A stretch of 64,000 bases of DNA from Malacoraja senta (Eukaryota), in NCBI GenBank assembly GCA_038087875.1, contig CM075987.1:17920001-17984000 (forward strand). The letters are read 5' to 3'. The stretch's first letter is position 1. Every line of letters begins with the position of its first letter. Positions 2,960 through 9,635 of this stretch are shown piece by piece. The notes below the pieces were generated by a model. It made no database searches, was not told where the DNA came from, and saw nothing but the letters and a program-made list of their open reading frames with translations. Made by a program: the position numbers and the translations under genes.

Positions 2960-3934
2960 ATGCAAATAAATAAGCCCTCAAGTACCATGTGGTCATTGTT
3001 ACCAAACCTATGCTATTCTCAGCTGAAACTATCATAGTCACCGTGGTGGACAAACAGTAGTCAGCATTTCTCCACTAACTTTTCATCAGTAAATCTTCAG
3101 TTAATTACAAACTGATGCTATTGCTCAAGGATGGGAAATTGCTTATACCATCTCTAGTTTCGGAGGTGGATGGGAGAGTTACCAATTCTTCAGTTATATG
3201 GTATCAACTACCTATAGACACTAGGTGCATTCTGTGGATTAAAGGTTTGTGCGAATATGCATAATCTGCATGCTCTAGTCCAAGTTGATACACTTCGGTG
3301 GTGGTAAATGTTAATCACATGGGTGCGATCAAGTCTAAGTATCCGGTGATAGTTTACCTAACCTCATTTGGGTACACAGTATGGGTGTTGGATCACAAAG
3401 TATTTAATTACATTGTGAACACTAAAAGACCGAGATGCTTGCATCCAGGCTCAATCACCAGTTGCAAAAATATGTGGCATATCAGTAGCGATGGATACAT
3501 TCTCGCTACACTGGGGAGGAATGTTCTTTTATGTCTTCCTCCTTTTATTTGTCTCATCAGACGGGTCTTGCAAAATTCAGCAAGTTCCCCCCTCAGGCAT
3601 TTTCATAGTGCCTGCCTGGCTTAGACAGCCATGGTTCTGCTGATGTGGGGAATGATAATAGAACCTTATATGGTTATTTCTAGACACAAAATTTGCTGGT
3701 TTAGCCGTGACGCGGGTAACCATCCTCAGCATTATATAATCATTCATTGACTTAAAGGCCTGTCTCACGAGTCTGCGGTCATTGGCGTCAAAACAGGAAG
3801 AATCTACCGCTCCTGGGCCGCCATAGACCGCGGGCTCGGTCAAACGTCCACCGCCGGGGCCGTGCGGCGTAGTTCCCAACACCACACGGTGCTAAAATAA
3901 AACCTACACTGTTCAAAACAATGGTCTTACCGCA

Positions 3935-4100
3935 CAGCCTCCGCCAGTGAGGCACGGCCGCCGCCACAGTCGCCGCCACAGCCTCCGCCAGTGAGGCACG
4001 TGTGCCGCACGTCCGCCTCCACAGCCGCCGCCACAGCGCCGCGATCAGCACAGCCGCCGCCACAGCCGCCGCGCTCAGCACTGCCGCCGCCACAGCCCCG
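3935..4100 (+). repeat. GC-rich subterminal repeats (GCCGCCACAG-type) of the Harbinger left end
   Basis: Repeated CCGCCACAGC / CCTCCGCCAGTGAGGCACG units. Confidence 0.85.
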
Positions 4101-4243
4101 CAGATCCGAAATGACGTCATCGCAGTAGGCCCGCCCTTTTTTTTTTGCTGTTCACGTCCAAACCACGTGAGATCTGAGACTTCAACAGTGTAGCATTTTT
4201 ACCGCGTTTTTCAAACGGAGTGTTTTGACAGTTGACTAGCAAC

Positions 4244-6176: not shown

Positions 6177-6784
6177 CATGTGGACATGAGCCGTAAGGAG
6201 TGAGGTTGCCCCCAAAATTCACTGTTGTGTCTGCTTGTGTGTTGCACATTAACGTTTAATTCACTGTTGTTTCTCACTACGTTATTTGTTTGCTTTCACT
6301 AATGAACAATGTTCTGTTGAATTGTGTTGCATATTTAAAAAGAATTTCTTGTTTTTCAATATGTTAATTGTTTCCACTAAATAAACAGTTTAAATTTAAT
6401 ATTGTATTGTGGAAAAAAGTGTCTGTTAATCATGGCGTAGATCTCTCATATGGAAACAACCTCTAATGATGGAATGCATCTCACATACAAAAGCATTGAT
6501 TTATTAGAGAAATAAAACACAAACAGGCATAGAATAGCATTGAATTACAAAGTTTGTCATTATAAGCCATGAAAATCAAACAATGGCATTTAAACGCTTT
6601 AAAGATCAGGCAATTTTAAAATAAGTGATGTAGGTATTACTATTAACACAGAATTAATAATTTCACAATGTAAAACCATCCATCAACATACATAGATCGC
6701 ACTTTTGTTAGATCTGGGGCCTTCATGATCGGGTACCTCTGCCGTGAGAAGGCAGCCCTGACATCCCCTGTTTGCTTTTGATCC

Positions 6785-8083
6785 TCAAAACACATTGTCC
6801 TGCCAGGGTACACTGCCTCGCTCTGAGTTGTAGTAAGCACAGAGATGGTCCCTCAGCTCCTTTGCTCTTTTGTTGCTGGTGTTTCCTTGCAATGACACCA
6901 GTGCCATCATCGGTGATGCCGGTCTTGCAGCTCTCCATGAACCTGGTGTGACTTCACCTGTCTGTTTGTCCATCGTGTCACCCTCCACCAAGGCTGCCAA
7001 CGCACCTCTGGTGCGGATCAGGTTATGGAGGACACATGCCGCGTAGACAATGGCCTGCACATTCTCGGGCTCCTGCTCCATTGTTGTCAGCAGGCATCTG
7101 AATCTGCTAGCAAGGATACCAAAAGCATTCTCCACTACCCTCCTAGCACTGGACAGCCTGTAATTGAAGATCCTTTGCTCCCTTGACATCCCCCTGTGAG
7201 GGTATGGCTTCATTATCCATGGCCTGAGTGCGAAGGCATCATCACCAACCAGTGCATAGGGGATGTCAGGGTTGTCTTCTCCCGGCAGAGGTTCTGGATC
7301 AGGAAGGCCTGCTCTCCCTTCTTCCAATGCTTGCCCAAGGGAGGTCTCTCTCCAGATCCCTCCATCTGTGGCACTGCAAGGTGTGCCCACATTCACAAAC
7401 ATGAAGTTGTAGTTTGCATCGACCACAGCTAACAGCACGATGGAATGGAACTTCTTGTAGTTGAAGTACACAGAACCTCCCCCGGGTGGACACCGGATGG
7501 CCACATGCTTCCCATCAACAGCCCCACATGTGTGCAGGAAGTTCCATCTGCTTTGAAAGCCGTGCGCCACACTCCTCCACCCGTCTGGTGTAGTTGGGCA
7601 GTCAATAAGCTCATCATATGTTTTGTTGATGGCATCACACGTCTCTCGGACTACACTGCTGATGGTGTTGTGAGCCACACGGAAGTTATACGACAGGCTC
7701 TTGTAGGAATCCCCTGATGCAAGGTAGCGGAGGGTGATGGCTAGGCGCAGGCCTGGTTCTAGTGACTTCCGCATGACGGTGTCCATTTTCTGCAGTAGAG
7801 GTCCGACTCGTGTCTTGAGCTCCTGAAACAGGTCAGGGGGGATCCTGGTGAAATTTCTAAAGGCAGCATCATCTACCCGCTGCAGATCCATCATCGTGGT
7901 CTCATACTGGCCCAAAGTAGGTCTCATCCGGAACAAAGACCTCGTCCACACTGACCTCTTCCTGGGCTTCTTCTTCATAACCTTCTTTGTTGAACTGCTG
8001 CACGGCTGACCTGCAATCAAGACGGCTGCTGCTAAGAGAAGTGTCTGTTGGTGTAGCAGCAATGCAATCTCAATCTCTTCCAT
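6785..8083 (-). CDS. PIF/Harbinger DDE transposase (HARBI1-family), 432 aa, intact
   Basis: FRNFTRI..F..L, HTH region LAITLRYLASGDSY, catalytic GAVDGKH, VGDDAF, SARRVVENAFGILASRFR, ACVLHN. Probable 5'-UTR intron 8117-8606. AATAAA on the minus strand at 6500-6505. Confidence 0.96.
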   Translation of the reverse strand: MEEIEIALLLHQQTLLLAAAVLIAGQPCSSSTKKVMKKKPRKRSVWTRSLFRMRPTLGQYETTMMDLQRVDDAAFRNFTRIPPDLFQELKTRVGPLLQKMDTVMRKSLEPGLRLAITLRYLASGDSYKSLSYNFRVAHNTISSVVRETCDAINKTYDELIDCPTTPDGWRSVAHGFQSRWNFLHTCGAVDGKHVAIRCPPGGGSVYFNYKKFHSIVLLAVVDANYNFMFVNVGTPCSATDGGIWRETSLGQALEEGRAGLPDPEPLPGEDNPDIPYALVGDDAFALRPWIMKPYPHRGMSREQRIFNYRLSSARRVVENAFGILASRFRCLLTTMEQEPENVQAIVYAACVLHNLIRTRGALAALVEGDTMDKQTGEVTPGSWRAARPASPMMALVSLQGNTSNKRAKELRDHLCAYYNSERGSVPWQDNVF

Positions 8084-9635
8084 TGTGCAGTAGTTTACAG
8101 GTCCAAATCAAGTTTGCTGCAAAATTAAGAGAAAGAATAAGTGCAAATATTCTGAAAAAGTTTATGTGGGCTCTTGATACACACGTGAGGAGAGTTGACA
8201 TGGACTTTGTGGACCAAAGGGCCTGTTCCTGTGTTATACTGTTCTATGTTCATGGTCTCTCTAAGAACACAGCTACTGTAACATTGACATTGCTGCAGAC
8301 ATTGGCACTCTGTGCAGTTACCAAATATGCAAAATATAATGGAAAATATTTCTCATTTGTTCTGGCTGCAGGCATGTTGAACAATTTCAAAAAGATGCAG
8401 GCTAATTCTGTTCTCTAGTATATGAAAGCTGTTTAGAGATACAGCATGGAAACAGGCCCTGCGGCCCACCGAGTCCACAACTATTGACCAAGCAATGAAC
8501 AGTCTCCCACTCTCCTTCACACTTGAGGTGATTTATAAAATTGTCTTTAATAAAGCACATTTCTATAACACAAGTTGAACAAGAATAGCCAGCGACTTTT
8601 GTTTACCTGAAAAAAAATGGCGTCAGGCTCGAGCTTCCAGACTCCGCTCAAAATGGCGTCAAGCTCGAGCTTGACTCCTCCCAAAATGGACGTCCGCACC
8701 CCCCCCCCCCCCCCGCTTCCGGTAAAAGTCCGGGATCACATGCTCGTTGGACAGGCCGTGCGGTGGTCACCCGACGTATGTGCAACAAAAGCTTCCGGTA
8801 AGGCAACATTTTTTTAACTTACCGCAAGCTCGTGGGATCAGCCGTACTTTTAATCACTCGGCCCCCGCGCAGCATCCGTGCGGCGCTCTCGCGGCACAGG
8901 CTCGGCGCTCTCACCCTTGCCGTGCAGTCCACTCTACCGGCGACGCCGCGCTTCACCGCCGATGACCGCAACACCGTGAGACAGAGCCATTACAGACTCT
9001 GAGAAGACCGTTCCTGCGGCTCGGGTTGTTAAACCAACCATGAACGTGCTCACTGCAGATCGCAGGGATAGCACCAAAATAACAGTATTCCCTCATAAGG
9101 AGATGGGAGGTATTTTGTTTTATGCTTATATTACATATAATTCGGCACGGATGACTGACGTCTTGAAGTTCAGGCTCATATGGGGGCTTGACAATCATTA
9201 AGTTACTATGCCTAAAGTGCCTTCTCATCATATTGGCTGGGGGGAGCAGAATCCACTCTGTCGGATCTCACCTTCTGACATCTAAATTATGAAGGATATC
9301 TTCAACTCGAAACCTCCCAGGCCCAGGGATGCACAGATATGGGGTGTTAATATTGTGCTACGTCGCTTTGCCGGTGGGCACCAGCTACATCCCTGTCCCT
9401 GATCAAACTCACTTACAAGTGGTTATACTCATAGCGCTGAGTGCTGCGCAACAGGTCCAGTCATTGCATAAACGGTGACTGGACAGGATGATTATATCTG
9501 CAGGCTGAATAACACTTATGTTTATGACTTAGTCAAGCAGAATAGACCAGGGGCACCAGGTCTCAAACTAGAAGGTACACAAAAATGCTGGAGAAACTCA
9601 GCGGGTGCAGCAGCATCTATGGAGCGAAGGAAATA

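Follow-up and report, generated by a model that had tools for sequence, protein, structure and literature searches.

A full-length two-gene PIF/Harbinger transposon with a spliced MADF-type partner gene in the skate Malacoraja senta, probably an ageing copy of a long-resident family

An initial annotation of 64,000 nucleotides (nt) of Malacoraja senta DNA (assembly GCA_038087875.1, contig CM075987.1, positions 17,920,001 to 17,984,000, forward strand; this whole stretch is termed the window herein, and positions are counted from its first letter) described an apparently intact Harbinger transposon at 3755..8989, with a transposase gene and an opposite-strand partner gene hidden in spliced pieces. 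The locus raises the question of whether such an element, with two open genes, is recently or currently active and recently acquired, or an old resident of its host. We found a full-length PIF/Harbinger copy of the autonomous type, and we consider it likely that its family has long resided in skates and that this copy is ageing and probably crippled.

PIF/Harbinger elements, as cited in PMC9179366 and PMC9710019, carry a DDE transposase of 400 to 500 amino acids (aa), a separate gene of the Myb/SANT/MADF type, terminal inverted repeats (TIRs) of 25 to 50 bp, and a 3-bp target-site duplication (TSD). The same arrangement was found here, with TIRs of 28 to 33 bp and a TSD of the TWA type:

3752..3754: left TSD, TTA, matching the right TSD
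3755..3787, plus strand: left TIR; 23 of its inner 28 nt and 1 of its outer 5 nt match the right TIR
3788..4140: left subterminal region, CpG-rich, with GC-rich tandem repeats of 12 to 44 nt at 3932-4106; common to abundant short derivatives in a related organism
6380..6385, plus strand: AATAAA in the spacer, candidate polyadenylation signal for the partner gene
6500..6505, minus strand: AATAAA in the spacer, candidate polyadenylation signal for the transposase gene
8600..8956: right subterminal region, CpG-rich, holding a 36-nt tandem pair at 8614-8694
8957..8989, minus strand: right TIR, inverted match to the left TIR
8990..8992: right TSD, TTA, matching the left TSD

Among 4,588 pairs of identical TWA trinucleotides flanking both genes, this TTA pair scored highest for inverted matching, at 24 of 33 positions (runner-up, 19). 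The ends lie where the initial annotation had placed them; the matching inner arms are 3760-3787 and 8957-8984, and the mismatches that it had noted at the outermost TIR bases were confirmed. The element ends are CpG-rich, as had also been claimed, with observed/expected ratios of 1.14 and 1.15 versus 0.20 to 0.45 in the interior. The spacer between the convergent genes has 34% GC, and its two poly(A) signals are oriented toward one another, in agreement with the initial annotation. The motif CCGTGCGG, picked post hoc, occurs three times in the element ends, not at all in the interior, and twice in the remaining 55 kb, and is a candidate subterminal binding site for the Myb-like protein. No second copy of the element was found within the 64-kb window.

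The transposase open reading frame (ORF; 8083..6785, minus strand) runs without a stop across 432 aa, as annotated, and matched DDE_Tnp_4 (PF13359) with 116.9 bits (cut-off, 24.8) and an E value of 8.6e-34. It also matched Plant_tran and, weakly, HTH_Tnp_4; none of the solved structures matched it by sequence.

6785..8083, minus strand: PIF/Harbinger transposase, 432 aa, with catalytic triad D190/D281/E318 and the changes W50L, L63T, G236C, and R312S
8117..8606, minus strand: candidate 490-nt intron in the transposase 5' leader, GT..AG with a pyrimidine tract, proposed from the letters
8200..8250, plus strand: relic of a host repeat end, matching abundant CR1-type repeat ends elsewhere in the window
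8431..8478, minus strand: another relic of that host repeat end, in inverted orientation to the first

Both relics, of about 50 bp each, lie inside the candidate leader intron (8606..8117). The 36-nt tandem pair at 8614-8694, which carries AAAATGGCG and a palindromic core, adjoins the candidate leader donor and is a possible promoter element of the transposase gene. A 52-nt inverted repeat (6718-6769 and 7258-7309, 87% complementary) places one arm shortly beyond the stop of the transposase gene and the other inside the coding sequence, and could pair in the transposase mRNA.

The partner gene was modeled as six exons:

4244..4736, plus strand: exon 1, with the N terminus, a 12-nt tandem array encoding Pro/Ala/Ser (4365-4540), and the first half of MADF
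4846..5027, plus strand: exon 2, second half of the MADF/trihelix domain, 70 to 75% identical to skate proteins
5174..5368, plus strand: exon 3, low-complexity linker
5480..5671, plus strand: exon 4, conserved three-helix C-terminal domain without a Pfam match
5765..5854, plus strand: exon 5; the family donor after 5836 reads GC here and GT in relatives, and a cryptic in-frame GT follows 5854
5976..6176, plus strand: exon 6, with TGA at 6174-6176, 8 to 9 codons shorter than Amblyraja homologue P0123

Splicing over the five GT-AG introns initially proposed gives an open protein of 450 aa, from the ATG at 4244 to the TGA at 6176, and the first four junctions are colinear with annotated Amblyraja and Leucoraja proteins (RefSeq models that, judging from their isoforms, we assume to rest on RNA). 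The donors of introns 2 and 4 are fixed by two skate isoforms that read into these introns and resemble the window's intron sequence there. The proposed fifth junction, 5854/5976, did not stand as that of the family. P0123 joins six codons earlier, after 5836, at which point the window reads CAG|GC; every aligned contig from two sequencing runs of a related organism carries T at 5838; and Leucoraja P0136 has Val at the codon matching the 5837-5838 site. For these reasons we place the family donor at 5836|5837, yielding a 444-aa protein, and regard it as mutated in this copy. The donor at 5854 was rejected as that of the family, because relatives have GT at 5836|5837, and it appears to be an in-frame cryptic site, with GTGAGT at 5855, 18 nt downstream of the family donor.

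The partner had been called MADF/BESS-like, of which the MADF half held. Although part of the window's exon 1 matched MADF (PF10545) with an E value of 0.0034, under the cut-off, skate homologue P0124 reached 24.5 bits (cut-off, 22); of the three other skate homologues compared, two fell below the cut-off and one gave no match. The predicted structure of P0124 (predicted local distance difference test [pLDDT], 64.9; predicted template modeling score [pTM], 0.36) contains a confident trihelix at residues 113-216 and three helices at 267-339. The DNA-binding domains of Sap1 (Z 7.2, root mean square deviation [rmsd] 3.7, 92 residues aligned), GT-1 (Z 5.7, rmsd 3.2, 70 aligned), and Zeste (Z 5.6, rmsd 2.9, 70 aligned) align to the trihelix part of this model, all with middling scores. 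Foldseek returned no match to the partner model at E values up to 0.001, and its C-terminal helices matched only generic hairpins. BESS was rejected as the C-terminal domain, since its profile had no match at E values up to 10 in exon 4 or the four skate homologues, or up to 1 within window positions 5153-5704; judged from the predicted model, a remote likeness of the three-helix exon 4 domain to BESS is still conceivable. The second gene of the element is thus of the Myb/SANT/MADF type, and an assignment to ISL2EU, in which the second ORF encodes a YqaJ exonuclease, was rejected because the gene is MADF-like. Together with skate homologues of both genes, this upholds the claim of the initial annotation that a vertebrate carries a PIF/Harbinger element with two genes, one of them a hidden, spliced MADF partner.

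How such an element would move is suggested by characterized systems, in which a Myb-like protein attaches to subterminal motifs as well as to the transposase, which it takes into the nucleus, and the transposase performs cutting at the TIRs and insertion at TWA (PMC9179366, PMC9710019). By analogy with zebrafish Harbinger3_DR and rice Ping/Pong, the spliced MADF protein would bind subterminal motifs and the transposase and bring it into the nucleus, the transposase would excise the element at its TIRs and insert it at TWA with duplication of 3 bp, and the same two proteins would mobilize short internally deleted derivatives. A complex prediction for transposase residues 40-432 with partner exon 4 scored 0.00, which is evidence neither for nor against an interaction. 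The present copy would have inserted at a TTA site and then undergone neutral decay of roughly 1.6 to 3%.

Contrary to the initial statement that this copy is without evident lesions, several were found. In addition to the GT>GC change at the fifth family donor (5837-5838), the stop lies 8 to 9 codons short of the end of P0123, the tail of which remains alignable past the window's stop. Ahead of MADF, near 4550-4580, the copy lacks about 16 codons, including a basic cluster, in comparison to Amblyraja copies. The transposase is altered at 4 of the 73 columns that are conserved in at least 95% of 123 relatives (W50L, L63T, G236C, and R312S; these four columns are 97 to 100% conserved). Among 120 scored relatives, the median number of altered near-invariant columns is 0, and 7 have four or more. 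Since the fifth donor is lost, the stop is early, the basic segment is gone, and conserved transposase residues are changed, we infer that the copy is probably crippled or weak; not all of the features of an active copy (splice sites of the family, conserved residues, and TIR tips that match) are intact here, and the claim of recent or current activity is not supported.

Divergence was gauged with the two runs (X1 and X2) of one related organism, which hold 0.37 to 0.38 of the words and whose contigs were aligned to the element at 85% likeness. The distance to the deep contigs was 12 letters in 746 (1.6%), summed over 5 non-overlapping deep pieces of the 16 listed, and the word share implies 3.1% divergence from the related organism. 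As the chance of acquiring no new stop is 0.19 at 1.6% divergence, the open frames are compatible with decay. From 40 of 384 difference rows, chosen for support, the 27 within 4303-8020 were taken; 21 of these fall in coding sequence, of which 14 reach 100% in both runs and 7 in one run. Without position 5838, the 20 listed coding differences comprise 16 missense and 4 silent changes, for which the neutral expectation is 26% silent; this 16:4 ratio gives P = 0.30 at an omega of 1 and 0.001 at an omega of 0.3. At the 16 missense sites, the residue of the closest relatives is present in the related organism at 8 and in the window at none, and neither has it at the other 8. Judged from this biased list, the coding changes appear neutral-like.

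The same runs showed the family to be multicopy in the related organism, in line with the initial annotation. Single interior contigs had depths of 167 to 287 (X2) and 906 to 2,311 (X1), versus 4 to 10 and 40 to 80 for others, which suggests roughly tens of similar copies; contig depth is not a copy number, and assembled contigs are blind to likeness among copies. Pieces 85 to 93% alike appear to be older relatives. Depth in bins over both element ends exceeded that of the interior 25- to 200-fold. A joint from 4137 to 8809 was seen in 7 contigs of X1 and 1 of X2, with the intervening letters undefined by the contigs. Because the ends are far deeper and the joint fits a short internally deleted derivative, we infer a population resembling MITEs (short for miniature inverted-repeat transposable elements). 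Interspersed copies and nonautonomous derivatives, which characterize PIF/Harbinger families, are thus present in the related organism; no empty target site was seen among the 15 joints listed out of 131. At 8305-8502, depth was about tenfold below the rest of the interior in both runs, with a 17-letter gap in the contigs; this relic-bearing segment may differ between subfamilies or be present in few copies, or the drop may be an assembly effect.

Relatives were sought in protein collections, mostly without species names, where the transposase search scored 8,000 candidates and listed 120 of 2,335 matches, and the partner search listed 150 of 771. The nearest named transposases among those listed were from Rhinoraja (73% identity) and a cluster with Leucoraja members (69%). 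All four matches to exon 2 were in Amblyraja and Leucoraja (70 to 75%), and all seven matches to an Amblyraja partner homologue were from skates. There are 17 annotated loci with partner homologues (8 in Amblyraja, 7 in Leucoraja, and 2 in Rhinoraja), and related families at 60 to 75% protein identity occur in these three skate genera and two skate families (Rajidae and Arhynchobatidae). Annotated relatives such as Amblyraja LOC116975603, LOC116982106, and LOC116966753, Leucoraja LOC129710402, Rhinoraja LOC144593005, and XP_055507877.1 share the partner exon layout at junctions 1 to 4, with 56 to 64% identity overall and 65 to 75% per folded exon, and have transposases 69 to 73% identical to that of the window, the Leucoraja protein XP_055507877.1 being labeled "putative nuclease HARBI1." These loci differ in being annotated as uncharacterized host genes, which are mostly truncated, and in being unrecognized as one transposon, and they differ from this copy in the fifth donor, the basic segment, and the stop. 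In a quick tree of 56 transposases (the window's, the first 45 matches, and 10 further named ones), five skate-labeled rows, including that of the window, and four other rows fell on one side of a branch with a support of 98.

Five Amblyraja/Leucoraja partner pairs are 93 to 97% identical, and twice two pairs lie on the same pair of contigs; because they share contig pairs, they look like insertions that predate the split of the two genera and still read open, so that some skate loci are apparently orthologous. The date of this split was not found in PMC8303890. One distant partner copy (P0287 in Amblyraja, LOC116985813; P0140 in Leucoraja, LOC129705593) has 412 aa in both species and in a Logan record, with 94% identity, and is the strongest candidate among these copies for an MADF gene domesticated in skates. 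A metagenome scan kept 80 of 117 loci, all distant (29 to 62%); the MADF profile was found in 5 of the 80, always on the opposite strand and downstream of the transposase, and the C-terminal profile in none. Nine of these loci (L010, L015, L016, L035, L036, L037, L046, L077, and L080) represent a distant 2.5- to 3.3-kb Harbinger family with TWA-flanked 24-bp TIRs, and L015, L016, and L037 have an MADF-like exon opposite the transposase.

Could the element instead be a young member of an active, host-specific subfamily, its differences being fixed subfamily changes and 5854 the subfamily's real donor? We consider this unlikely, although both frames are open without a frameshift, the triad is intact, the ends are CpG-rich, the GTGAGT at 5855 is a strong in-frame donor, and the compared runs are not from the window's own locus. 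The 16:4 ratio of missense to silent changes, the replacements at near-invariant columns, four unmatched outermost TIR bases out of five, the lost basic segment, and the early stop argue against it. Several points do weigh against decay of a crippled copy. The chance of no new stop is 0.04 at 3.1% divergence, and no frameshift is present either; splicing could be rescued by the in-frame GT donor that lies 18 nt downstream; and the catalytic triad and the CpGs of the ends are retained. At a looser threshold of 90%, the transposase does not stand out, with 5 of 98 columns altered and an equal number or more in 23 of 120 relatives. At codon 151, it is the window that has the residue nearer to skates. 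The 16:4 list favors conserved, and hence missense, sites because its rows were chosen for support, species or subfamily differences are mixed in because the comparison is with another organism, and the copy evidence comes from that organism's contigs.

The initial annotation had also suggested horizontal acquisition. A recent transfer from a marine invertebrate or teleost would resemble Harbinger-Snek of sea kraits, likewise a Harbinger family that multiplied greatly in a marine vertebrate, for which the transfer was dated to 15 to 25 Mya (PMC8437027); no close nonhost relative of the skate element was found among the matches listed. Among the 11 species-named transposases of the 120 listed, those beyond skates came from sea urchins, a crab, a shrimp, two teleosts, and a symbiont bin, and the 10 partner matches looked up of the 150 listed comprised 8 from skates, 1 from hagfish, and 1 from snow crab; no shark or nonskate ray was among either set. 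This composition would suit a transfer, with sea urchins, crabs, shrimp, two teleosts, and hagfish as the next named relatives after skates. However, the best listed nonskate transposases are 48 to 61% identical and none outside skates exceeds 61%, compared to 96 to 98% in the Harbinger transfer between salmonids and carp (PMC9179366), so that a recent transfer is unsupported; no near-identical element in a distant host was present among the 120 transposase or 150 partner matches listed. Related families in Rajidae and Arhynchobatidae, some apparently orthologous, a resemblance to Amblyraja even in the read-through of intron 4 (9 of 11 codons), and host repeat relics within the element also speak against it, making a recent transfer the least credible account; the skate stem may have been entered long ago, or the family may have been lost or underannotated in sharks and rays. 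Scarcely more credible is an immobilized pair on its way to domestication, like HARBI1, NAIF1, and the MSANTD genes or insect PIF/MADF pairs. Open frames, degenerate TIR tips, the 17 partner loci annotated as genes in three skate genera, and the pair with 412 aa in both species would fit it, whereas the retained TIRs and TSD, the multicopy state in the relative, the neutral-like changes, and skate pairs that differ at 3 to 7% of residues, as neutral copies presumably would, do not. HARBI1, NAIF1, and MSANTD1-4 derive from the same two gene types (PMC9392472); being single-copy, syntenic, and under negative selection, they form a class that was rejected for this element on the grounds just given. 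An ageing copy of a family long resident in skates remains the reading that we favor.

The transposon is embedded in a repeat-filled region. Fragments of long interspersed nuclear elements (LINEs), which we take to be of the CR1 type, lie at 1642-2840, 14537-21637, 27863-30137, 34271-39222, 44688-46974, and 50665-56711, with pairs 95 to 97% identical, and one ORF of the window had 28 tblastn matches within it. Broken ORF pieces at 42184-43978, 49826-50707, 53834-54961, and 57263-61210, interrupted by LINE copies, are presumably retrovirus-like (RNase H, reverse transcriptase, integrase, protease/gag, and envelope-like motifs). A 3.2-kb direct duplication (25409-28637 and 31817-35048; 98.8% identical), an 872-bp part of which recurs at 24237-25107, reflects a recent tandem duplication or an assembly artifact.

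In PMC9179366, Harbingers are reported to be absent from elephant shark, and an examination of other cartilaginous fishes is called for; PMC8455134 lists PIF-Harbinger in whale shark and describes slow substitution rates in chondrichthyans. The available main text of the Squalomix preprint mentions neither DNA transposons nor PIF or MITE. No description of a skate Harbinger was found in the literature searched, and subscription papers, repeat libraries, or supplements (whale shark file 20 and that of the preprint) may hold one; the element is apparently a new, undescribed skate member of a known superfamily. Compared by description to Harbinger3_DR, it is set apart by its skate lineage, a partner gene of six exons whose three-helix C-terminal domain is unnamed, and its lesions. 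It offers no new mechanism, and as a natural vertebrate transposon tool, a use initially proposed, it would add little to the already characterized Harbinger3_DR (as cited in PMC9710019). It remains a rather doubtful conjecture that skates, alone among sampled cartilaginous fishes, were anciently invaded by a marine-invertebrate Harbinger lineage that radiated into several families, left a very large MITE population and, in some species, full-length copies that are still mobile, and gave rise to skate-specific, young Myb-like genes, the spliced MADF genes kept at orthologous loci in Amblyraja and Leucoraja, which are now being domesticated. The finding helps to fill the stated gap on Harbingers in cartilaginous fishes (PMC9179366, PMC8455134) and points to a large MITE family, and the full two-gene model explains at least 17 "uncharacterized" skate gene annotations as transposon partner genes. 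It also urges caution, in that open reading frames in slowly evolving genomes do not by themselves indicate a young or active element.

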